A stretch of DNA of 23,509 nt, from IMG/VR virus record IMGVR_UViG_2713896786_000017; one strand, 5' to 3'. This document shows, piece after piece, positions 2,923 through 14,442 of the stretch (the first letter of the stretch is position 1; every line of letters starts with the position of its first letter). Both the position numbers and the translations under genes were made by a program. The notes beneath the pieces are model-generated. The model saw only the letters and a list, made by a program, of their open reading frames with translations. It ran no database searches and was not told the origin of the DNA. Source of the DNA: a virus (Duplodnaviria > Heunggongvirae > Uroviricota > Caudoviricetes).

Positions 2923-3723
2923 TTAACCGCGCTTCGCCTTCTGCGTCGCGGTGGTTTTTCGTGTTGCAGGCTTCCGCGTTGTCTTTTTACTTTTGCTGCT
3001 TTCGTCCTGCGCCTGCGGTGTGCTGGCATCTTCTGGTGCGGCTGCGGAATCGGCTTTTTTCAGGGCGCGGGAAAGGGTTGCAATCTCGCGTTTCACACCT
3101 GCGTTCGGGTTCAGGTGCATTGCTTCGCGCAGCAGCTTCAGTGATGAGGCCATGCTGTCCGCATCGGTCAGGCCACGGCGGGCAAAGGCGCACGCTTTGC
3201 ATAATTTGGCGCGCACTTCGTCCGGCATGTCCTGGTTGGCGACAATCTCCCGGAGGGTGTCCAGTGGTTCGATAAAGGCGGACAAATCCGCGTCGGCATC
3301 CGTCCCGGCCTGTGTCAGTACCGGATTACAGATTTCTTCGGTCAGTACCGTGGCAGCAGTACGGCCAAAGTTATCCGGCATGATGAGGTTGTGATGGACC
3401 ACATACGCGCCGATACGCAGCGCAAGCGGAAGATCGCCACAGTCAATCGCCCACACCATCAGCGTGGCAATCACTTCATCCTGCTGCCCGCCGTCAGCTT
3501 CCAGCGTTCCCTCAATCCAGCCGGAAAAATCCGGCAACAACTCTTTTTTGATGGCGGCTTTCGCGCTTCTGGCCTGTACGCCCTTTAGTCTGGCCTGTGC
3601 CAGACGCAGACGATACAGCACCTCTTCATGCGCGGTACGCGCGGCGTGGTCCACACCTTCATTCGCCCGGCCTGCGCGCTGTGCCATCACGTTCTGCCAG
3701 TGTTGTTGTGCAGGAGTAATCAT
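2923..3723 (-). CDS. M: Terminase endonuclease (small) subunit (P2 gpM-like)
   Basis: 266 aa track ORF; DMPDEVRAKL motif and basic K/R/T-rich C-terminal tail as in P2 gpM; conserved order N-M-L. Confidence 0.85.
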   Translation of the reverse strand: MITPAQQHWQNVMAQRAGRANEGVDHAARTAHEEVLYRLRLAQARLKGVQARSAKAAIKKELLPDFSGWIEGTLEADGGQQDEVIATLMVWAIDCGDLPLALRIGAYVVHHNLIMPDNFGRTAATVLTEEICNPVLTQAGTDADADLSAFIEPLDTLREIVANQDMPDEVRAKLCKACAFARRGLTDADSMASSLKLLREAMHLNPNAGVKREIATLSRALKKADSAAAPEDASTPQAQDESSKSKKTTRKPATRKTTATQKAKRG

Positions 3724-3768: not shown

Positions 3769-4821
3769 TTAGCTGTCGGCGAACTTCAGGCCAGTGACCA
3801 TCGCGCACTTGCCATAGTCTTCAACGACATAAGCGTCATTGATGGACTGGTAGGTGGCGATGCGGTTGTATTCCGGCTCGTCTTTCATCAGGCGACGCAT
3901 TGAACCTTTCTGCCAGTAAATCGACAGGTTGTTGAACGAGGTGATCAGCATCGTTGCATCCGGGAAGAACGGCGCAAGGAACACGCCCAGCCCGCCAATG
4001 GTGCGCGATGACAGGATGAGCTGCCCGGCAAGTAATTCCGCATTGGGATTCTGGCCGCTGATGCTGTTCAGCACGGGCAGACGCAGCGAGTTAAACAGGT
4101 TGCGCCCCATAATCACCACGAGGTCGTCAGCTTCCTTGTGCCATTCGTCCAGCAGGGATGAGCGCGCATCCTGTACCAGAGCATCGGCATTCGCATACTT
4201 ACCCGCGTGCGCCACAGTGTTGTCCATGTTGCGGGAGGTCAGCGTCACGTCATTCATTACGCGCTCGCTGGCATCGGTTCTGATGTGCTCCAGCCAGCCC
4301 ACGTTAACGTCCTGAAGCAGCTTGTTGGTGTGAAAATCAGACTCGTAGGCGTGGGATGTGCCGTTAAAGCCAATCATGATGCGATCAAGCGCTACCTGCC
4401 GGGCGATCTGTGTACTGATACGGGACTGAAAATCGCTGTGGGCCGCCCAGGTATCAAGCTGTGGGTACGAAATAAAGGTATCGTAGTTCACCTGTTCGCA
4501 CTGGTACTGACGAGACTTCATATCGATCACGTTATTCGGGTTACGGCGTTTGATGCCGTCATAACTGCTATTCGTGCGCGCAATTGGCCCGGTGGTGTCC
4601 GGGAGGATTTTTTCGCCTTTCTGGTCGGTCACGCCGATCACGTTAATTCTTTTCGTAAATTCGGTACTTTCCTTTGAGGCGTTTTCAAAACGCTGCTGCA
4701 CCGCGGGTTCCACGGTAAATCGCGATACCAGTGCAGATACCGGGATATTGTTAAGCGACGCCTGCTGCGCCATATAGCAACCCAGCTTGTTGCGGGTAAT
4801 ATCTGACATCACCAGATTCAT
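3769..4821 (-). CDS. N: Major capsid protein (P2 gpN-like)
   Basis: 350 aa track ORF; FTVEP, IMIGFNGTS, LQDVNVGWLE, DDLVVIMGR and SIYWQKGSMRR segments parallel P2 gpN as recalled. AAGGAG lies upstream of the ATG. Confidence 0.9.
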   Translation of the reverse strand: MNLVMSDITRNKLGCYMAQQASLNNIPVSALVSRFTVEPAVQQRFENASKESTEFTKRINVIGVTDQKGEKILPDTTGPIARTNSSYDGIKRRNPNNVIDMKSRQYQCEQVNYDTFISYPQLDTWAAHSDFQSRISTQIARQVALDRIMIGFNGTSHAYESDFHTNKLLQDVNVGWLEHIRTDASERVMNDVTLTSRNMDNTVAHAGKYANADALVQDARSSLLDEWHKEADDLVVIMGRNLFNSLRLPVLNSISGQNPNAELLAGQLILSSRTIGGLGVFLAPFFPDATMLITSFNNLSIYWQKGSMRRLMKDEPEYNRIATYQSINDAYVVEDYGKCAMVTGLKFADS

Positions 4822-4844
4822 AAAAAATTTGCTCCTTTGTCTTA

Positions 4845-5681
4845 TCAGAAGTCAGCCAGCTGGTCGGAGGCTGCACCTGTTGCGGTGAACCGGTTCTGCG
4901 GATCGCCGTCCTGCGTGCGCAGTTTTTCCTTCAGTGCTGCCAGCTCTGTGGTCAGTGACGTAATTTTCTGGCGGTCCTGCTGATGGCGGGTTTCCAGCAC
5001 ATTAAAACGGTCGATAATGTCGGCCTGTGACGTTGCGACGCCTTCCACCGCTTCCTGAATACGGGAAAAACTGGCGTCATCCGCTTTGCGGCCACGGCCA
5101 ATAATCCCCATTACGTGGTTAAACCACTGGGTGCCTTCTTCCTGGCGTTGTTCTGCCATTTCGATGATTTCAGACTCGATGGCTTCGGAGATAAGCGGCG
5201 CTTCACCCTGGACACTGTTGAACGTCATTACCGCCTGACGTTGCTGTGCCGTGAATTTCAGGCGCTCAGTGCCCAGGCTTGCCGGGGTGTCGGTCATCGC
5301 CAGCCCGACCAGATAGGCGCGCCCGTTAACGGAGAACTGCGGGTGCAGTTCGATACTGGAATAGATTTTCTTGCCGTCCGCGACAAGCTGCTTCATGCGC
5401 TCGGTCGGTTCGATTTCTGCATACAGCGCAGTACGTCCGGCCAGCGGACCTTCCGTAATGTCTTCCGTACTCAGTGCGGTGACATCGCCCATTGCGGAAA
5501 ATTCGCTTGACGGGCATGGCGAGAGATAGTGCTCAACGTTCACGCGGGCAGCGTAAACATCCGGGTTGAAGTTCTCGGCGGCTTCACGCAGATGCACCGG
5601 ACTGATTTCACGGCCATCAACAGTTGATCCGGAGACAGCCACGCGAAACTTTTTGCGGGATGTCTTTTTTTCATTAGCCAT
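4845..5681 (-). CDS. O: Capsid scaffolding protein (P2 gpO-like)
   Basis: Internal Met of track ORF 4845..5714 (MANEKKTSRKKFRVAVSGSTVDGREIS...) chosen because GAGGGG lies 9 nt upstream; LVGLAMTDTPASLGTE resembles P2 gpO. Confidence 0.85.
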   Translation of the reverse strand: MANEKKTSRKKFRVAVSGSTVDGREISPVHLREAAENFNPDVYAARVNVEHYLSPCPSSEFSAMGDVTALSTEDITEGPLAGRTALYAEIEPTERMKQLVADGKKIYSSIELHPQFSVNGRAYLVGLAMTDTPASLGTERLKFTAQQRQAVMTFNSVQGEAPLISEAIESEIIEMAEQRQEEGTQWFNHVMGIIGRGRKADDASFSRIQEAVEGVATSQADIIDRFNVLETRHQQDRQKITSLTTELAALKEKLRTQDGDPQNRFTATGAASDQLADF

Positions 5682-5835
5682 AGTTTTTGCCCCTCTGACT
5701 GGTTCTTCAGTCATGATGGCAAAGCGTAACAGGCTGATACAAAGGGCTTTTGTTGTAAGAAAACGGCCAGAACAGGGGGTTAAGGAGAACGGTTTCGCGC
5801 GCGGGTAATCTTCCTGTAATTACTCAGGGGGAGCA
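5682..5835. promoter_or_regulatory. Divergent late-promoter region between the O-N-M-L... operon and the P-Q operon
   Basis: 154 bp spacer between divergently transcribed O and P. In P2 this spacer carries the Ogr-dependent late promoters. Individual -10/-35 and activator sites were not confidently placed. Confidence 0.4.
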
Positions 5836-7587
5836 ATGATTCAGGACGCTTTTGTGCGCCAGCGTGCGCGGCAACTTTACTGGCAGGGTTATCCGCCCGC
5901 AGAAATATCACGTCTGATGGGAATAAACCCGAACACGATTTATGCGTGGAAAAAACGCGACCAGTGGGATGAAACGCCACCCGTGCAGCGTGTCACGCAG
6001 TCCATCGATGCGCGCCTCATCCAGCTTACTGAAAAACAGAATAAAACAGGCGGTGACTTTAAGGAAATAGACCTGCTGACCCGGCAGCTTAAAAAGCTGC
6101 ATGATGGCCAGCCGGATGTGATGGCCGCAGGAAAGAAAGGCCGGGCGAAAAAACTCAAAAATCATTTCACGCCGGAACAGATTTCCGCACTGCGGGAAAA
6201 AATCATCAGCAGGCTGGAGTGGCATCAGCGGGGCTGGTTTGACTCCCTGACCCTTTGCAGGGAAGCCGGGATACGTAACAGGATGATCCTGAAATCCCGA
6301 CAGATTGGGGCGACCTGGTATTTTGCACAGGAAGCTCTGCTGATGGCGCTGCGTGACGATGTGGCGCAACCTTACCAGCGTAACCAGATTTTTTTGTCTG
6401 CGTCGCGTCGTCAGGCGTTCCAGTTTAAAAGCATTATTCAGAAGGCCGCGGCTGAAGTTGATGTGGAGCTGAAAGGGGGCGATAAAATCATCCTCTCCAA
6501 CGGCGCAGAGCTGCATTTTCTCGGCACTTCTGCTGCGTCGGCACAGTCCTATACGGGCAATTTTTATTTTGATGAATTTTTCTGGGTCAGTCGCTTTGCT
6601 GAACTGCGCAAGGTGGCTGGCGCTATGGCAACCCTCAGCGGACTGCGGCGCACCTACTTCTCCACGCCATCCACCGAAACGCACGAGGCATACGCCTACT
6701 GGAACGGCGACCGCTGGAACGAGAAAAAGGCCTCGCATAAACGCCAGCGTTTTTCTGTGGACTGGAAAACGCTGCATAACGGGCTTATCTGCCCTGACCG
6801 GACGTGGCGGCAAATTGTCACGCTGGAAGATGTGGTTAATCACGGCTGGAAACACACCGATATCGACGAAATTCGTGATGAAAACACCGAAGACGAGTTC
6901 CTCAATCTCTATATGTGTGAGTTTGTCCGCGAAGGGGAATCGGCATTTAACCTGAATATCCTGATTGGCTGCGGTGTTGACGGATACGACGACTGGAAAG
7001 ACTGGAAACCTTTTGCTCCCCGACCGATGGGGAATCGTCCGGTATGGATTGGGTATGACGCAAACGGCAGTAGTGGCAACGGCGACAGCGGCGCTGTGTC
7101 CGTGGTGGTTCCTCCGGCTGTTCCTGGTGGCCGTTTTCGAACGGTGGAGACGCGACGCGTTCAGGGGCTGGAGTTTGAAGAACAGGCCAGAGTCATTGAA
7201 GAGTTCACGTATCGCTACAACGTGGAACACATCGGCATTGATGTGACGGGCGGGAACGGGGAGGCTGTTTATCAGATAGTGAAGCGGTTTTTCCCTGCTG
7301 CTATTCCGTACACCTTCACGCTGTCATCAAAACGGTCGCTGGTACTGAAAATGCTGCAAATAATGCGTGCCGGGCGGTGGGAATACGATCGCGCCGAACG
7401 TGAGCTGGTCGCGGCCTTTAACGCCGTGCGTAAGGTGAAAACACCGGGCGGCTTTATCACTTACGAAACGGACCGCGCGAGGGGGATCAGCCACGGCGAC
7501 CTTGCGTGGGCAACCATGCTTGCTGTCATTAACGAACCGATTGGCGGCGAAGGAGAAAACGAGCGTTTCACGGTTATGGAGTTCTGA
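5836..7587 (+). CDS. P: Terminase ATPase (large) subunit (P2 gpP-like)
   Basis: 583 aa track ORF with terminase-like ATPase region (ILKSRQIGATWYF...); precedes Q with overlapping stop/start (TGATG). Confidence 0.9.
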   Translation: MIQDAFVRQRARQLYWQGYPPAEISRLMGINPNTIYAWKKRDQWDETPPVQRVTQSIDARLIQLTEKQNKTGGDFKEIDLLTRQLKKLHDGQPDVMAAGKKGRAKKLKNHFTPEQISALREKIISRLEWHQRGWFDSLTLCREAGIRNRMILKSRQIGATWYFAQEALLMALRDDVAQPYQRNQIFLSASRRQAFQFKSIIQKAAAEVDVELKGGDKIILSNGAELHFLGTSAASAQSYTGNFYFDEFFWVSRFAELRKVAGAMATLSGLRRTYFSTPSTETHEAYAYWNGDRWNEKKASHKRQRFSVDWKTLHNGLICPDRTWRQIVTLEDVVNHGWKHTDIDEIRDENTEDEFLNLYMCEFVREGESAFNLNILIGCGVDGYDDWKDWKPFAPRPMGNRPVWIGYDANGSSGNGDSGAVSVVVPPAVPGGRFRTVETRRVQGLEFEEQARVIEEFTYRYNVEHIGIDVTGGNGEAVYQIVKRFFPAAIPYTFTLSSKRSLVLKMLQIMRAGRWEYDRAERELVAAFNAVRKVKTPGGFITYETDRARGISHGDLAWATMLAVINEPIGGEGENERFTVMEF

Positions 7588-8633
7588 TGAGCAGAAAAAA
7601 TAAAAAAGTGCGCATGAGTTCACGCATTGATCTCGCTGATGCGCTCAGGAAAGAATCATCGCTCAGTGCATTCACATTTGATGGTCCTTATCGCCTGACC
7701 GGGCATGACCTGCTGGACAATATGTACTGTGCTGATAACGGGCGGTGGTATGAAACCCCGGTGGACTGGTACGGTCTGGCAAGAGCAGCCCGGCAAACGT
7801 CCTGGCATCAGTCTGCGCTTTACTTTAAGCGCAATGTATTACTCGGTTGCTACATCCCGCACCCGCTGCTTTCCCGGCAGGATTTCTCGGCGCTGGCGCT
7901 GGACTGGTTTGTGTTCGGTAACGCATTCCTTGAGCTTCGAAGCAATATGCTCGGCGAACCGCTTAAATTACGGCACGCCCTGGCGAAATACATGCGACGC
8001 GGAAGCGATCTTGAATCATGGTGGTATGTGCAGGATGGCAAGGACGCGTTTCAGTTTCGCCCTGGCAAAGTGTGCCACCTGATGAATCCTGACATTAACC
8101 AGGAAATCTACGGCATGCCGGAATATCTCGGCGCATTACTCTCGGCCAGCCTGTCTCATTCGGCGGACATGTTCAGAAAACTGTATTACGACAACGGATC
8201 CCACGCCGGGTGCATCATCTACATCGGTGCAGCGCAGGTAAACCGCGAAAGCATGGACTCCCTGAAAGAAACGCTACAGGGTGCACGTGGTGGTGGTGCG
8301 TTTAAAAACGTGCTCATTCATGCGCCCAACGGTGGCAAAGAGGGGGTGCAAATTTTGCCGTTCCAGCAGATCACCGCAAAAGATGAGTTTATGAATGTTA
8401 AGGCGGCATCCCGTGATGATGTGCTGGCTGCGCACCGCGTTCCGCCGCAACTGATGGGGGCGATGCCGGGCGAAAAAAGTGCGTTTGGTGATGTGGAGAA
8501 GGCCGCGCGGGTTTACGCAATTAACGAGCTGATGCCCGTCATGGAGGCCATGAAGCACATCAATGACTGGCTTGGCGAAGAGGTGATCCGCTTTAACCCT
8601 TACGCACTGTTAGATACCCAGCCCACATCCTGA
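7587..8633 (+). CDS. Q: Portal protein (P2 gpQ-like)
   Basis: 348 aa track ORF, last gene before the cos region as in P2; portal-like central region. Confidence 0.85.
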   Translation: MSRKNKKVRMSSRIDLADALRKESSLSAFTFDGPYRLTGHDLLDNMYCADNGRWYETPVDWYGLARAARQTSWHQSALYFKRNVLLGCYIPHPLLSRQDFSALALDWFVFGNAFLELRSNMLGEPLKLRHALAKYMRRGSDLESWWYVQDGKDAFQFRPGKVCHLMNPDINQEIYGMPEYLGALLSASLSHSADMFRKLYYDNGSHAGCIIYIGAAQVNRESMDSLKETLQGARGGGAFKNVLIHAPNGGKEGVQILPFQQITAKDEFMNVKAASRDDVLAAHRVPPQLMGAMPGEKSAFGDVEKAARVYAINELMPVMEAMKHINDWLGEEVIRFNPYALLDTQPTS

Positions 8634-9056
8634 CGCGCTTCGCTTGTCTGCTGCTTCGCCGGGGCATAAAAAATTTATGCCCCGACTCTCCAGCTCCTGT
8701 ATCAATCAGATAATTTCACGACGCTTTCCTGCTTATTGCCATCATCGACGGTCAGACTCTTACGCAATCCCACTGCGCTGACTGCATGTTCTCGCCGCCT
8801 CAGTGCGATTTTGACGGCCTTATCTGCCACCCCATCAAAGCAAAAGCCCTCACGTCTTTTTCACGCTCAGCGTGAGAAATACAGCCATTCTGTTGTATCT
8901 CTGCGACACCGTTCAGGGGATGCTATTTACCCCCTGAAGCGCGGGCTGTTCCCCCGTCACCTGCGCGTAGAAAAAGCGCGTTTTTTTGTGCACGCACGGA
9001 TCCTTGACGGATCCAGCCGCCATGCGGGCCGGAAGGGTAAAAAGTCGTTCAAAAAA

Positions 9057-9086
9057 ATTGTGCAAATTTGTGCACTTTTGTGCAAA
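9057..9086. repeat. Three direct TTGTGCA repeats at 10 bp spacing (iteron-like)
   Basis: attgtgcaaa tttgtgcact tttgtgcaaa at about 9057..9086, read directly from the sequence. Confidence 0.6.
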
Positions 9087-9120
9087 CAAAAAGCGCCCCT
9101 GAGGCGCTTTAGTGTTTTAT
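9087..9120 (-). terminator. Rho-independent terminator ending the A-parM-parR-orf143-orf87 transcription unit
   Basis: aaagcgcc-cctga-ggcgcttt hairpin (about 9089..9110); on the minus-strand transcript it is followed by UUUUGUUUG. Confidence 0.55.
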
Positions 9121-9144
9121 AGGTTGTGTATATTGGCTGGGTCC

Positions 9145-9860: not shown

Positions 9861-10175
9861 TCACTCTGGGAAAAATGACTGAATGTTCTTTCTTATCTCG
9901 CTAGTGCTGTGATTGCTTCCGGTGGCAGGTGCGCTGGCATATTTACTCTGAATATTATTCTTGGCTGGCGCAGCTCCTTCTTCCGGCCATTCGGCCAACC
10001 AATAGGCAAATGCAGGATCGCGTTTTATGAGTGCCAGCCCGGCCAGAAAGGCCGCGCGTTGCGCGCGGCTGCGTTCAGAGGCTGGCAGGCTGTCGAGGTA
10101 ATTACACGCCTCCCGTTCACTATTGACGGCGACTGGCTTCAGATAGAAACTTATCCGTCTGGTTGGTGTCGTCAT
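9861..10175 (-). CDS. parR: ParR-like DNA-binding adaptor of a type II (actin-type) partition system
   Basis: Internal Met of track ORF 9861..10310, 5 nt after the ParM-like stop, with AAGGAG overlapping that stop. MTTPTRRISFYLKPVAVNSEREACNYLDSLPASERSRAQRAAFLAGLALIKRDP parallels the N-terminal half of plasmid R1 ParR as recalled. Confidence 0.7.
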   Translation of the reverse strand: MTTPTRRISFYLKPVAVNSEREACNYLDSLPASERSRAQRAAFLAGLALIKRDPAFAYWLAEWPEEGAAPAKNNIQSKYASAPATGSNHSTSEIRKNIQSFFPE

Positions 10176-10179
10176 TGGT

Positions 10180-11139
10180 TTACTCCTTGTCCATTGCGTA
10201 CAGCCCATTAACCAGAGCAAACTGTGGCACCCCGTCCGCGATGAAAGTCGCATTAACTCCGCAGGCTTCGCGGATAGCGGGTGCCACAATCTCCGTCCCA
10301 CCACCGACAACCATCACCCGCCCGTAACCCGAAAAACCCGCCAGCGCGCGGATCACGCGTTGTTTCAGTGTTTCTTCCTTTTCACGAATAACCGCCATCA
10401 GGCTGGCGTAATGCGCGTCATTGTGGATGTGCTGGCGCAGCCAGGCTTCATCATGGCGATGTTCGATAATGGTATTGGCGATGTGGTGACTGGTGCGCAT
10501 ACCGTTAGTGGCCATCACCGACAGTACGGCATCGGCCATCAGAGAAACGCCTACGTGTGGATCGCAAAACACCTGGCTGATACCTGCCAGTTGCCCCTGA
10601 ACCTTTGCCACATCCAGCGTGGTTCCGCCCAAATCCACAATCAGCAGGGATTCAAACGGACTCATGTCAGCCAGTGCCTTAAAGCCAGCCGGAATGGATT
10701 CAGGCATAACCCGTACGTTACGGATAGTGAATGCTTCGCCGTTCTGGTACTCCACCGGGCGCATAACGTTCGCTTTTTTGCGGTTGATATTGGTCATGTC
10801 CGGCTGTGCGTTTGTGTCGAAATACTCGCTCAGTGGCAGGGTGACAACCACATCCACCTCCTGTGGTGTGATGCCTGATTTGACCAGCGCGTGATGAATG
10901 GCAATGACATTCACATCGCTGTATTGGTATTGCGTGTCGGTCGTCTGGACAAAGCGATCGCTGACCGGATCAAAACCATAGCGCACGCCATCAAGCATGT
11001 AGTTCGCGGGCTGCGTGCCACCGAACGGCGCAGACCATTCCGACTTGAAGCTGTTCGGGCTGATGGCGTTGCGGCGTTCGCCGTTCTCAGTCCATGCCAG
11101 CTTGATGTTGGTGGAGCCGTCGTCGATACAAATTTTCAT
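10180..11139 (-). CDS. parM: ParM/StbA-like actin-fold ATPase
   Basis: 319 aa track ORF. MKICIDDGSTNIKLAW, ISPNSFK, YQYSDVNVIAIHHAL, VMPESIPAGF, DLGGTTLDV and VVGGGTEIV parallel plasmid R1 ParM motifs as recalled. Confidence 0.85.
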   Translation of the reverse strand: MKICIDDGSTNIKLAWTENGERRNAISPNSFKSEWSAPFGGTQPANYMLDGVRYGFDPVSDRFVQTTDTQYQYSDVNVIAIHHALVKSGITPQEVDVVVTLPLSEYFDTNAQPDMTNINRKKANVMRPVEYQNGEAFTIRNVRVMPESIPAGFKALADMSPFESLLIVDLGGTTLDVAKVQGQLAGISQVFCDPHVGVSLMADAVLSVMATNGMRTSHHIANTIIEHRHDEAWLRQHIHNDAHYASLMAVIREKEETLKQRVIRALAGFSGYGRVMVVGGGTEIVAPAIREACGVNATFIADGVPQFALVNGLYAMDKE

Positions 11140-11215: not shown

Positions 11216-14056
11216 TCATATATCGCTGCGCGTTTTTTGCTCATTTACGGGATTCGTGAGTCCCGTTTCTGTCTGTTTTTTGTTTCCACTGGTCAGGCCA
11301 CCCCGCAGCAGGTCTGCTTTGCGGCGGGCGCGTTCAGTGGTTTCACTGATTCTCTGTGCGTGCTCTGCGTCGCGGATGGCGCGCAGCATGTCAGAAAGCA
11401 CGGTAACGGGTGTTTTCATGGTGTTCTGGTCCTGCTGAAGTGTGGATGCCAGGCGTGCGGCGGCTTCAGGGTCTGATGCCCCCAGCTGTGTCAGATAGCT
11501 GGCGACCGGGTTATGGCGGATCTCCGTGCTGCTTACGCCATGATTACGGCTCAGGCGCTGCCAGAGCTGCGTGATTCGGCTGTCCGGGCGGGTATCCGGT
11601 TTGCGTACAATTTCAAATCCCTGCGGTGCAATGATGCTGCCGTCAACGTACAGACTGCCGCCCCGTAACAGGTGCTGCATCTGTTGTTCACCGATATGCA
11701 GGCCGAGAGATTCAGCAGACTCCCGCCATTCTTTAGCGAGTAATTCGTGGTTATCAGGCAAAGGCCGCTGCTGTTTGCGGCTCTGTGTCCAGCTCTGCAT
11801 TTCATCACTGCTGTTTTTTGCCTGTTTGTCACGAAGCGAACGCATCAGCGCCCGGCGTTCGTGCCGTTTCAGTGAGCGCATCCATTCATCCACATCAACG
11901 CCGTCAGGGAGCTGCGGCCACGGTGCTGGCCGTTCTTCCGGCTGTTCTGTCCCGTTGTTGTCCGTTTCCTGTACACGGGGACAGTTATTGCCACGAGTCC
12001 AAGGGGCGGCAGGGCCGCCCTGAAGGTCAAAACCATTTTCGCGGGCGCTGTCTTCCGCTTCCGGTTTGCGTCTTACCAGCTTCCAGTTATCCGGATGCGT
12101 GCATACGCGGGAAGACTCCCCAATGAGCGGCGACCAGATCCCGTAAATCTGTACGCTCTGTTCACCGTAATCGTTCAGCTCATCTGCGAGGTCGTAGGCG
12201 GTGCGAATCAGGTAGTCTTTGCGTGGAACAAGTACGCCACCCTGTTTCTCAATGTAGGTGGCAAAACATCCGGCATCAGCGGCAGCGAGTACCGCGTCCA
12301 TTGCGTCATCCTTCAGCCGTTGCGGGCCTTCCGGGTTGCGTGCCATCTGGCTGGCAAGGCGGCGCAGTTCACGCCACACCTGACGGGAGGGGATACCAAA
12401 GAACTGGAACTGGCGGACCCGGTGAAGGCGCGCCCAGCCGATGGCGCGTTCCACGCTCTCGGCCATTGATTTTCCGGTTTCGTGGTCAACGCGTGGCTTG
12501 CCCGTTTTCGGGTCGATGCCATCCACGGCGCGGCTGTCCAGGTTCTTTCCGATGTAGGTGGCGATGTAGCTGGTTGGTGTGCCTTTTGAGCCGTCGACAT
12601 ACTCCACCTTAAAGCGCGGAGTAATATCATTGCCCAGCTCGTGGCGGTCTTCCTGAATGGCAATATCGCGGGTGATGGCCACGATGCTGTCGATTTCTTC
12701 CGGATGAGCAAAGACCATCATATGCCAGTGCACAGTGCCGTCATGGTGAGGCTCCACCGTGCGGATGCCATACCAGCGCAGACCGTCGCGGTTCAGTTTT
12801 TTGCGGACCGCCGCAAAAAACGTGTTAACCAGGTAATCGCTGGAGTCGCGCATGGTGGCCCCGTTCCATTTAGGGTTCGGATGACCGTTCTCCGTTGTTG
12901 CGTGGTATTTTGACGGGCAGGTGACAGTCAGAAACACCGCTCTGTCGCCACGGGCTTCGGCCAGAAGTTCCAGTCCCTTCATGGTGGCCATCATTTCTGC
13001 CTTACGGTGAACCGGGTTACTTACTCCCGCGTAATACACTGTCTCGAGATCAATCGTGAACCCGTCTTCGTTTTCCAGCATGAAACTTTTCAGGAAATCG
13101 CGTGTTTTCTCGCGCTGTGCGCGAAACTCGCTTAACGCGTCCTGGCTCAGATAGGGTGATGTTTTTCTGGAAACCAGACAGGCGGCGCGGAGTTGTTCTT
13201 CTCTCCACTCGCAACGTAACAGCCACAGTTTGCGTTTCCACCATTCCGCACAGGTCAGGCGAAGGATTGCGCCCGGCAGCAGCTCCGTGTCTGGTTCGTT
13301 CCTCCGGTCTTTGTCTGTTGTCAGTGCGTCATAATGTGGAGGCATGGCGTGCAGGTGTAACGCCATGCGGGCCAGCATCTGATACGTCTTCAGCGTTACA
13401 TCCATGGTCAGCTCGCCATCGGTCGCGCCAAAGCCATCGCAGAGTTTTTCGAAGGTGCTGCTGAACATCGCCGCCGTCATGGTGGCCAGCGTCTGTATCT
13501 GGTGTTTGTTGAGCTGCGGCAGGTAAAGCAAATCGTCCAGGCGTTCGCGTCCGGCAAGGGAGCGATAACCAGGTGTCAGCCAGCGCCCGTCAGTGCGATC
13601 CAGACGTTCGAATATTTTGCGCAGGGTTCCGCGTGCATAGCGTTCCGCCTGCCAGCTCTTTTTGCCTTTCTGACGATCGGCTTCCTGCTTCTTGCGCAGG
13701 AAAGAGAGGTGGCGGCTCAGAGGTTCTCGCAGATAAACGGGAAGCGCCTTCAGTGTGGCAAAGGCACGGGCTACCGGGTCTTGTTCTGTTGCCCGGCGCT
13801 TACTGATGATGCTCTGTGCCAGCTTCTCACGCTGTCCGGCTTCCTCAAGGGATGCCATGAGTTTTTTACCCATGGCGGATTGTGCGAAAAAGGCTTCTTT
13901 CTTCGCTTCCTGTTCTTCCTGTGCCCTTTTGTCCGCCTCAAGGTAGTAACGGATGGCGCGTTGCAGGTCGGTTTCAGTTTCCTGCCTGTGCTCCGTAAAT
14001 CTGGCCGGATCAATAGCTGGTCGTGGTTCATTCCAGCTCCATGCAAACGCACTCAT
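11216..14056 (-). CDS. A: Rolling-circle replication initiation protein (P2 gpA-like HUH endonuclease)
   Basis: Track ORF 11216..14083 (955 aa). HUH motif in GTVHWHMMVFAHPEE and paired tyrosines in TSYIATYIGKNL. The ATG at 14056 overlaps the upstream stop (ATGA) and is the likelier start; 14083 is a GTG. Confidence 0.85.
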   Translation of the reverse strand: MSAFAWSWNEPRPAIDPARFTEHRQETETDLQRAIRYYLEADKRAQEEQEAKKEAFFAQSAMGKKLMASLEEAGQREKLAQSIISKRRATEQDPVARAFATLKALPVYLREPLSRHLSFLRKKQEADRQKGKKSWQAERYARGTLRKIFERLDRTDGRWLTPGYRSLAGRERLDDLLYLPQLNKHQIQTLATMTAAMFSSTFEKLCDGFGATDGELTMDVTLKTYQMLARMALHLHAMPPHYDALTTDKDRRNEPDTELLPGAILRLTCAEWWKRKLWLLRCEWREEQLRAACLVSRKTSPYLSQDALSEFRAQREKTRDFLKSFMLENEDGFTIDLETVYYAGVSNPVHRKAEMMATMKGLELLAEARGDRAVFLTVTCPSKYHATTENGHPNPKWNGATMRDSSDYLVNTFFAAVRKKLNRDGLRWYGIRTVEPHHDGTVHWHMMVFAHPEEIDSIVAITRDIAIQEDRHELGNDITPRFKVEYVDGSKGTPTSYIATYIGKNLDSRAVDGIDPKTGKPRVDHETGKSMAESVERAIGWARLHRVRQFQFFGIPSRQVWRELRRLASQMARNPEGPQRLKDDAMDAVLAAADAGCFATYIEKQGGVLVPRKDYLIRTAYDLADELNDYGEQSVQIYGIWSPLIGESSRVCTHPDNWKLVRRKPEAEDSARENGFDLQGGPAAPWTRGNNCPRVQETDNNGTEQPEERPAPWPQLPDGVDVDEWMRSLKRHERRALMRSLRDKQAKNSSDEMQSWTQSRKQQRPLPDNHELLAKEWRESAESLGLHIGEQQMQHLLRGGSLYVDGSIIAPQGFEIVRKPDTRPDSRITQLWQRLSRNHGVSSTEIRHNPVASYLTQLGASDPEAAARLASTLQQDQNTMKTPVTVLSDMLRAIRDAEHAQRISETTERARRKADLLRGGLTSGNKKQTETGLTNPVNEQKTRSDI

Positions 14057-14442
14057 GGCTGGTATCCCGTCACGCGCTGCCACTCCTGCGAGAAGAGGGC
14101 GGAAAGGCGGTTAAATTCAGCGGTGTATTCACTCAGCGAGGCACACCCGCCAGCAGTGCGATGCGCCAGCATTGCTGCAAATACGGAGGCCGGGGAGTCG
14201 TAATACGCCAGCAGTGATTCGCCGTGCGGTGTCAGGCAGTGCAACGCCAGTCCGTGTGGTGTGAAGTCCACGCGGTAGCAGTCGTCTACTGTGAAATAAA
14301 GGGTGTCTGCATTCTCCGGTTTTGTGGTGCGTGCTCTGTTGTCACGACCACGGATGTAGAGATCAAATAACCCCTGAAGAACGGGAGCCAGACGGGTGTC
14401 CTGTGTGCGCACCCATCTTGTGAAGTCATGAGCGTCAATCAT
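14053..14442 (-). CDS. Hypothetical early protein (129 aa) directly upstream of and coupled to gene A
   Basis: Track ORF with ATG start; position is that of the small orfs preceding A in P2-like phages. Confidence 0.5.
   Translation of the reverse strand: MIDAHDFTRWVRTQDTRLAPVLQGLFDLYIRGRDNRARTTKPENADTLYFTVDDCYRVDFTPHGLALHCLTPHGESLLAYYDSPASVFAAMLAHRTAGGCASLSEYTAEFNRLSALFSQEWQRVTGYQP

Follow-up and report, generated by a model that had tools for sequence, protein, structure and literature searches.

Three TTGTGCA repeats behind the portal gene of a P88-type prophage are probably the distal box array of its cos packaging site

Introduction

What function do three identical short repeats, spaced by one helical turn, serve in the non-coding DNA behind a phage portal gene? 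The question is raised by IMG/VR record IMGVR_UViG_2713896786_000017, a stretch of 23,509 nucleotides from a member of the Caudoviricetes that was analysed as a whole and is referred to here as the window. An earlier interpretation that relied on the letters of the window (the sequence-only reading) took its three TTGTGCA copies for a phased protein-binding array of the packaging (cos) region, and named the terminase small subunit, IHF or Fis of the host, and ParR as candidate binders. The general idea of such an array is strongly supported by comparison with related elements. The repeats are probably the distal box array of a prophage cos packaging site, and they are best read as predicted recognition sites for a phage-encoded terminase, functionally like lambda cosB.

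Repeats and cos core in the window

The three repeats are exact copies on the plus strand with a start-to-start distance of exactly 10 bp, just as the sequence-only reading had it, and lie within the local sequence aaaaaaaTTGTGCAaatTTGTGCActtTTGTGCAaac. The 7-mer is not enriched in the window overall (6 copies, 5.84 expected), and four of the six copies fall within 100 bp. TTGTGCA is the sole 7-mer in the 23.5-kb window with three copies at a fixed spacing of 9–12 bp, and such a 7-mer triple did not arise in any of 2000 shuffles that preserved the dinucleotides of the window. The triple is real and non-random. One further copy in the same orientation, which had escaped the sequence-only reading, lies upstream of the triple and is described below as the proximal box.

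The window is a P2-family prophage of the P88/Xuanwuvirus type, and the array is located in the intergenic region between the portal gene and gpA, ~100 bp from a homologue of the P2-family cohesive-end core. This core is predicted by homology to the ends of P2, 186, P4 and phiRSA1 and occupies about 8943–8961. Counted manually in one register, the minus strand of the window (GGTGACGGGGGAACAGCCC) agrees with P2 (GGCGAGGCGGGGAAAGCAC) in 13 of the 19 nucleotides. It is also close to the end of the Ralstonia phage phiRSA1 (GGTGAGGCGGGGTCCAAC), which has been determined experimentally (PMC5694545). Klebsiella phage 3LV2017 is an intermediate that carries the P2-type core CCCCGCCTCGCC at the homologous place; it has TTGCTCCCCCGCCTCGCC, the reverse complement of the P2 cohesive end GGCGAGGCGGGG..., where the window has GCTGTTCCCCCGTCACC. 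Both the position and the flanks of the window core are shared with the cores of P2, P4 and 186. None of the 19 core columns varies among 72 unique relatives (described below), where every locus covering the region had the anchor, although 14 of these 19 positions themselves served as the anchor by which the region was found. In Fels-2 and phiE202 no cos core was detected within 4 kb of sequence beyond the portal gene. One relative (L022, at ~8375) has an IS1-like end (GGTAATGACTCCAACTTATTGATAGTG) inserted directly after the cos core (GTTCCCCCGTCACCTG, then GGTAATG), an insertion that should inactivate packaging of that prophage.

Read from portal to cargo, the core is followed by a GC-rich hairpin with a T-run, the proximal box, a 65-bp spacer and the three distal boxes. 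An analogous hairpin element is present in P2 (CCGCCCGCTTCACGGGGCGG TTTT), and equivalents occur at the same place in P2, P4 and 186. The proximal box corresponds to the TGCA at the start of the P2/P4 55-bp core (TTTTAATGCA). All boxes in the window have one orientation and are found on the cargo-side arm. Counted from the proximal box, the distal boxes are 72, 82 and 92 bp away. These distances amount to approximately 7, 8 and 9 turns of the DNA, which brings the boxes to roughly one side of the double helix. The length of the spacer is kept across lineages, its sequence only within the P88 and Novemvirus groups.

Box geometry across the P2 family

The same order of elements, with core, GC hairpin and T-run, a proximal box (TTTTAATGCA), a spacer of ~65 bp and three boxes, is common to P2, its satellite P4 and 186. 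The distal arrays are AATGCAAtctCATGCACccttgAATGCAA in P2, CATGCAAagcCATGCACcttatcgATGCAT in P4, CATGCAAaacAATGCACctgttgCATGCAC in 186 and TGTGCAAattTGTGCACtttTGTGCAA in the window, and P2 and the window alike have A, C and A in turn after TGCA. P2-type elements (P2, 186 and P4) have ATGCA and P88-type elements have GTGCA. Positions for these and other elements are given in Table 1. The distances from proximal to distal boxes do not depend on the register chosen for the core: the window group has 72, 82 and 92 bp, the third is 92–95 bp elsewhere, and the Ralstonia phage and Kp4861-1 are 1 bp shorter.

Table 1. Starts of xTGCA boxes counted from the end of the core, with genomes written from portal to cargo
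Element	Proximal	Distal	Remarks
P2	+25	+97, +107, +119	
P4	+25, +31	+97, +107, +120	
186	+25, +31	+97, +107, +120	
Erwinia phage ENT90	+25, +31	+98, +117/+121	second box degenerate, ATGCG
L198	+25, +31	+97, +107, +117	divergent locus from pattern scan
Klebsiella phage 3LV2017	+25 (GTGCG), +34	+97, +107, +117	
Klebsiella phage Kp4861-1	+26	+97, +107, +117	core counted as CCCCGTCACCT
Ralstonia phage YO139_2	+25, +31	+96, +106	betaproteobacterial host; third box degenerate
Window, satellite L006, Novemvirus group, Symbiopectobacterium loci	+26	+98, +108, +118	core counted as CCCCGTCACCT

The geometry is nearly identical in lineages whose spacers cannot be aligned, with ENT90 and the Ralstonia phage fitting less cleanly. 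A gapless comparison of P2 with P4 gives an identity of 0.89 for +1 to +19 and 0.91 for +20 to +30, 0.19 for +31 to +93, and again 0.68 for +94 to +112. In the comparison of cos regions, a check that the sequence-only reading had proposed, the box positions are common to most of the P2-family phages and to both satellites compared. Judged from these sequences, the GTGCA array is a lineage-specific version of a box architecture common to most P2-family members examined.

A scan of 185,579 species genomes for exact TTGTGCA-N3-TTGTGCA-N3-TTGTGCA gave more than 120 places, and only ~20 of the listed matches are enterobacterial P2-type cos sites. About 100 of the listed loci (L088–L207) are in unrelated phyla, among them many in Bryobacteraceae and others in Bacteroidota, Akkermansia, Alphaproteobacteria and Bacillales. 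These foreign arrays have variable 3-nt spacers and often 4–6 copies, with several loci in some genomes. No P2-like genes were seen near the foreign loci listed. A gpP-like recognition helix (NT[IVL]Y.W; see below) accompanies the array in 2 of 101 foreign loci, against ~0.3 expected by a rough estimate, an excess too weak to be informative.

Two further features of the spacer are of note. The direct repeat ACGGATCC...ACGGATCC (8998–9003 and 9009–9014) gives two Dam (GATC) sites, and related loci (Novemvirus, Symbiopectobacterium and others) again have GATCC past the proximal box; by analogy with P1 pac, these sites may hint at methylation-sensitive control. A GC-rich dyad, GCCAG-N3-4-CTGGC, lies mid-spacer at about +52 to +66 from the core in many lineages, and is seen in L208, L198, L213/L215 (186), L220 (ENT90), L221 (ST437), L225 (Aeromonas) and L006. 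Examples are CGCCAGTGCTGGCG, GGCCAGCTGTGGCC and GCGCCAGCACTGGC, the P4 version is CGCGCCGGGAATGGCGCG, and the window matches the dyad weakly at 9015–9033. This dyad may be a further protein-binding site or play a structural role.

Conservation in two lineages

The P88 lineage is represented by 80 viral contigs, chosen via the portal gene and not via the repeats, which reduce to 72 unique sequences. Distal boxes 1 and 2 are nearly invariant in these close relatives, each with a single minority sequence, and only one of the seven columns of the proximal box varies. The two 3-nt spacers between the distal boxes have 14 and 6 minority sequences, and the mean per column is 2.25 for the 65-bp spacer and 2.87 for the arm between portal and core. 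This comparison indicates purifying selection on the boxes in the P88 lineage. After box 3 the sequences diverge into at least 12 unrelated cargo junctions, and BLAST homology stops at window position 9084 in most of the E. coli matches listed. The adjoining terminator noticed in the sequence-only reading has to be separated from the array at this point. The hairpin at 9090–9110 is a good intrinsic terminator but is part of the variable cargo and not of the conserved module, and relatives have other, unrelated junction sequences in its place.

An independent replicate is provided by the P2 lineage, where 80 contigs with a P2-type portal gene yield 65 unique arms. Median pairwise identity in these arms is 0.92 beside the core and 0.33 in the spacer, with variable DNA beginning at ~+36. 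TGCA nevertheless recurs at fixed places, against a background of 0.025 per position: 60 arms have it at +26 and 44 at +32, and further out 52 arms have it within +97 to +99, 44 within +107 to +109 and 36 within +117 to +121. The boxes of the P2 lineage are thus islands in cos register within unrelated DNA, which ties them to cos and not to the cargo.

Satellites

P4 encodes no terminase. It is otherwise unrelated to P2 and has ATGCA boxes at the P2 positions. A second example is an E. coli island (L006/L222, NZ_AP024114.1 3986600–3999100) with a P88-type block that carries TTGTGCA three times at the same positions as in the window. The shared block extends from ~25 bp before the core through box 3; beyond it the sequences are divergent and the context is unrelated. 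The island is a P4-like satellite with a toprim primase, Icd-like and ogr/delta-like proteins, two tyrosine recombinases (integrases) and MazEF. It also has its own P2-family major capsid gene with a neighbour of 236 aa, and its annotation shows no terminase or portal gene in the stretch examined. The boxes of each satellite match the type of its presumed helper, with ATGCA in P4 and GTGCA in L006. By this comparison, elements packaged by a helper terminase would share exactly this block with helper-type phages, which amounts to a natural minimal-cos experiment.

Similar cos-only loci are L103, L119, L149, L168, L198 and L199. Kluyvera, Erwinia dacicola and other genera thus also harbour related loci that carry cos and lack gpP or gpQ, and in two of these, L149 and L199, there is a capsid-like gene ~38% identical to gpN.

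Candidate reader

Both box types are found in E. coli phages, so the reader is expected to be phage-encoded and a single host protein is unlikely. Terminase recognition remains the best reading of the boxes, as the sequence-only reading had suggested in part; the small subunit that it named among its candidates is disfavoured, since the model of gpM lacks a helix-turn-helix and the large subunit has one. The AlphaFold model of gpM (pLDDT 80.9) is all-helical, with a repeat-like domain and a disordered lysine-rich tail. Compared with the PDB, its best matches are TPR proteins at non-significant scores, and neither a helix-turn-helix fold nor a solved homologue was found.

The putative recognition helix of gpP reads G-I-[NS]-x-N-T-[IVL]-Y-[AS]-W-[KR]-K-R in elements of the GTGCA type (the window, Pantoea, Mixta, Citrobacter, Symbiopectobacterium, 3LV2017 and Kp4861-1). 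The corresponding helix is K-[RT]-P-T-V-Q-S-W-K in P2, 186 and ENT90, and K-x-A-T-V-H-S-W-K in ST437 and Fels-2, the boxes of Fels-2 not having been located. These domain matches and models point to the helix-turn-helix of gpP as the likelier reader, with gpM as a possible partner or adaptor. A helix-turn-helix on the large subunit gpP rather than on the small subunit gpM is a division of labour unusual for a terminase.

A bolder extension is that the large subunit is its own specificity factor. Its helix-turn-helix would read the 2+3 TGCA boxes, gpM would be a helical-repeat adaptor, and the G or A of the box together with the helix would define packaging-specificity groups that decide the mobilisation of satellites, whether P4-type or capsid-gene-carrying such as L006. 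Taken as a whole, this proposal is tentative and rather doubtful.

Alternative explanations

Several other functions could be imagined for phased repeats at this place. The boxes are phased with A/T tracts (A7, AAATTT and TTTT), suggesting bent DNA, and IHF acts at lambda cos as well as at P1 pac; the boxes might accordingly be bound or bent by a nucleoid protein of the host, be it IHF, Fis or another, that shapes cos for the terminase. However, the IHF recognition proposed in the sequence-only reading finds no match, as the IHF consensus WATCAANNNNTTR does not occur at one mismatch or fewer in 8930–9100. P2, 186 and P4 with ATGCA also share E. coli with P88-type elements with GTGCA, and each group keeps its lineage-specific boxes, which makes a host protein an improbable reader. 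A site of recombination or cassette exchange, from which the cargo hotspot would arise, is more improbable still. Such a site would account for the break of P88-lineage homology to unrelated cargo exactly after box 3, and hotspots beside cos are documented (PMC9122126). In the P2 lineage, however, the distal boxes persist in cos register although the variable DNA starts far ahead of them; satellites keep the boxes, no recombinase is consistently linked to them, and a recombination site would not be expected to hold a constant distance from the cohesive-end core.

A transcriptional element, be it an operator, a promoter upstream element or part of a terminator, is very unlikely for similar reasons. 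In P2, the sequence ahead of the mapped old-tin mRNA starts does overlap the distal boxes, and the terminator of the window abuts box 3. Yet many kinds of cargo and junction adjoin the same boxes, whose register follows cos and not the cargo genes, the terminator is not conserved together with them, and no Rfam family was matched (the sole hit, SprD, scored 17 bits, below the threshold of 100). Ogr-type TGT-N12-ACA and CRP-like half-sites, checked by eye, do not fit either. The last candidate, a parC-like centromere for ParR/StbB of the ParM module, was also raised in the sequence-only reading. ParM and a StbB-like protein are encoded only ~0.8–2 kb away, and phased short iterons are typical of parC. 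This candidate was nonetheless rejected and its probability is negligible. The triple is kept in the absence of ParM/StbB at 22 loci whose downstream sequence spans 3 kb or more, as well as in a satellite and a Phd/Doc-carrying phage. Equivalent boxes are present in P2, 186 and P4, where no partition gene is annotated in the adjoining stretches examined. Moreover, parC is normally upstream of parM, while the array is on the other side, downstream of the operon and beyond two other open reading frames (ORFs).

Evidence that weighs against a terminase-binding array

A number of observations fit the packaging-site reading poorly or limit how far it can be taken. Box 3 is less constrained than boxes 1 and 2, with 21 minority sequences among the 72 (mostly TCGTGCA, some TTGTGCG), and ~20% of the unique P2-lineage arms are without a clean first distal box. 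In Aeromonas phage LPM4 (L225, ~535–580) the core and the proximal box are present but three GATCCTT repeats replace the distal TGCA boxes, and the distal array of Klebsiella phage ST437 is degenerate. Because of these exceptions the distal array is neither universal nor absolutely required. The covariation of recognition helix and box type rests on two or three clades and is confounded by phylogeny, since gpM diverges in parallel (the window and P2 share 36% identity, the window and 3LV2017 56%, P2 and 186 72%). Binding of the boxes and their role in packaging are predicted from sequence comparison. The analogy to cosB rather than cosQ is functional only.

The deposited record of phage P88_4B11 (LR595891.1) presents a different kind of difficulty. 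This linear genome begins and ends at window 9039|9040, within the cos spacer and not in the core, ~78 bp from the cohesive-end core. A cos cut at this position was considered and dropped once the core homologue was found. Columns around 9037–9039 are among the most variable in the 72 unique relatives, and for this reason the termini of the record are judged arbitrary and are probably not physical ends.

Genomic context

Features of the window are collected in Table 2. P88-like phage records show the same context, with Q followed by the cos region and then cargo. The segment 8940–9130 is identical to E. coli O104:H4 chromosomes, and related DNA is present in 1139 of 5426 complete E. coli genomes. 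An ORF at 8736–9122 within the intergenic stretch gave no match in a Pfam search. An actin-like ParM and a StbB/ParR-like protein form a partition module between cos and gpA, and the related loci examined, most of them P88-like viral contigs, have ParM in 62 of 104 cases.

Table 2. Features of the window around the predicted cos arm
Feature	Position	Strand	Remarks
Small terminase gpM	2923–3723	-	PF05944, Pfam 3.6e-37
ORFs at the places of capsid gene N and scaffold gene O	3769–5714	-	from P2 gene order only, no profile scan
Large terminase gpP	5836–7587	+	Terminase_5
gpP N-terminal helix-turn-helix	5851–6024	+	Terminase_5 residues 6–63, PF06056 1.8e-26, HTH_23; candidate reader
Portal Q	7587–8633	+	
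Non-coding stretch	8634–9144		
Homologue of P2-family 19-nt cohesive-end core	about 8943–8961	-	predicted; minus strand GGTGACGGGGGAACAGCCC; register uncertain by 1–2 nt
GC-rich hairpin and T-run (GCGCGTAGAAAAAGCGCGT TTTTTT)	8963–8985	+	terminator-like match; between core and proximal box
Proximal box TTGTGCA	8986–8992	+	GTGCA core 8988–8992; ~25 bp from cos core
65-bp spacer	8993–9057		GGATCC at 8998–9003 and 9009–9014, block GGGCCGGAAGGGTAAAAAG, A7 tract
Distal box 1 TTGTGCA	9058–9064	+	72 bp from proximal box
Distal box 2 TTGTGCA	9068–9074	+	82 bp from proximal box
Distal box 3 TTGTGCA	9078–9084	+	92 bp from proximal box; final conserved block before variable cargo hotspot
Bidirectional intrinsic terminator of cargo cassette	9090–9110		terminator-like hairpin; adjoins conserved cos module, outside it
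Cargo including StbB-like protein and ParM	about 9861–11139	-	
StbB-like protein	about 9861–10184	-	
ParM	10180–11139	-	
Replication protein gpA	11216–14083	-	

Discussion

The proposed packaging function can be put as a sequence of steps. A phage-encoded component of terminase would bind the boxes co-operatively, more likely through the N-terminal helix-turn-helix of gpP, with gpM as partner or adaptor. Binding may bend or wrap the arm of ~100 bp and so bring the nuclease to the core, which is ~25 bp away from the proximal box, leading to specific cutting and the start of packaging. The base that distinguishes GTGCA from ATGCA could contribute to which DNA, including that of satellites, a given terminase packages. 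Boxes needed in cis in this way would mark the outer limit of conserved DNA beside the hotspot for defence and cargo genes. This would explain why the anti-phage cargo hotspot of P88-like prophages starts at one exact base, the last of box 3.

Ziermann and Calendar (1990) reportedly examined the cos of P2/P4 by deletion, with 19-nt cohesive ends and a core of 55 bp. The P2-family cos has since been described as a 55-bp core (PMC5694545, PMC3931495, PMC2231350, PMC9594776). By comparison of P2 with P4, this core begins at the proximal TGCA box and leaves the distal boxes outside. The distal boxes are not mentioned in the papers on the 55-bp core, although the original deletion study was outside this survey and may note them. 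Longer cos flanks raise the transduction of P2 cosmids by three to four orders of magnitude (PMC9594776), an effect that fits a need for the distal arm. The layout described here offers a testable map of the P2-family packaging signal past the commonly quoted core, with the N-terminal helix-turn-helix of gpP as the probable DNA reader in the family. It predicts that a minimal efficient cos cassette for P2/P4-based transducing particles would consist of the core and ~125 bp of the cargo-side arm. A rule of ATGCA versus GTGCA may contribute to the matching of helpers and satellites.

Comparison with known systems

The closest counterparts are the cos sites of P2, P4 and 186. They share with the window the place downstream of the portal gene and beside a cargo hotspot, the homologous GC-rich core, the hairpin with T-run, the proximal TGCA at ~+25 and the distal boxes ~72, 82 and 92–95 bp further on. 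The window differs in having GTGCA instead of ATGCA and the core CCCCGTCACC instead of CCCCGCCTCGCC. Its distal spacing is exactly 10+10 bp, compared with 10+12 in P2 and 10+13 in P4 and 186. The spacer is conserved within the P88 lineage, where the hotspot follows box 3, whereas in the P2 lineage the hotspot starts from ~+36.

Lambda cosB consists of R3-I1-R2-R1 bound by gpNu1, with R4 on the other side of cosN. In both systems short spaced repeats flank the nicking site and are presumed to assemble terminase and confer packaging specificity. However, the P2-family boxes lie on one side of the core, have one orientation and measure 5–7 bp, not 16 bp. No IHF site was found between the repeats of the window (8930–9100), and recognition probably falls to a helix-turn-helix on the large subunit instead of to a small subunit of the Nu1 type. 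The likeness is functional, and homology was not detected. P1 pac (4+3 TGATCA/G hexamers, an IHF site and Dam control) and SPP1 pacL/pacR are similar in that two groups of short repeats, tens of bp apart, direct terminase cutting nearby. These are headful systems with repeats on both sides of the cut, and those of P1 are Dam-methylated; the TGCA boxes are without GATC, though the spacer of the window has two GGATCC. Here too the resemblance is one of function and homology is not claimed. The parC site of ParMRC likewise has short iterons at a spacing of about one turn, but the array described here shows no linkage to parMR among relatives and is misplaced with respect to the operon. What the window has in common with the packaging sites is the presence of multiple copies of a short motif at fixed positions from the nick site, conserved beyond the neighbouring DNA.

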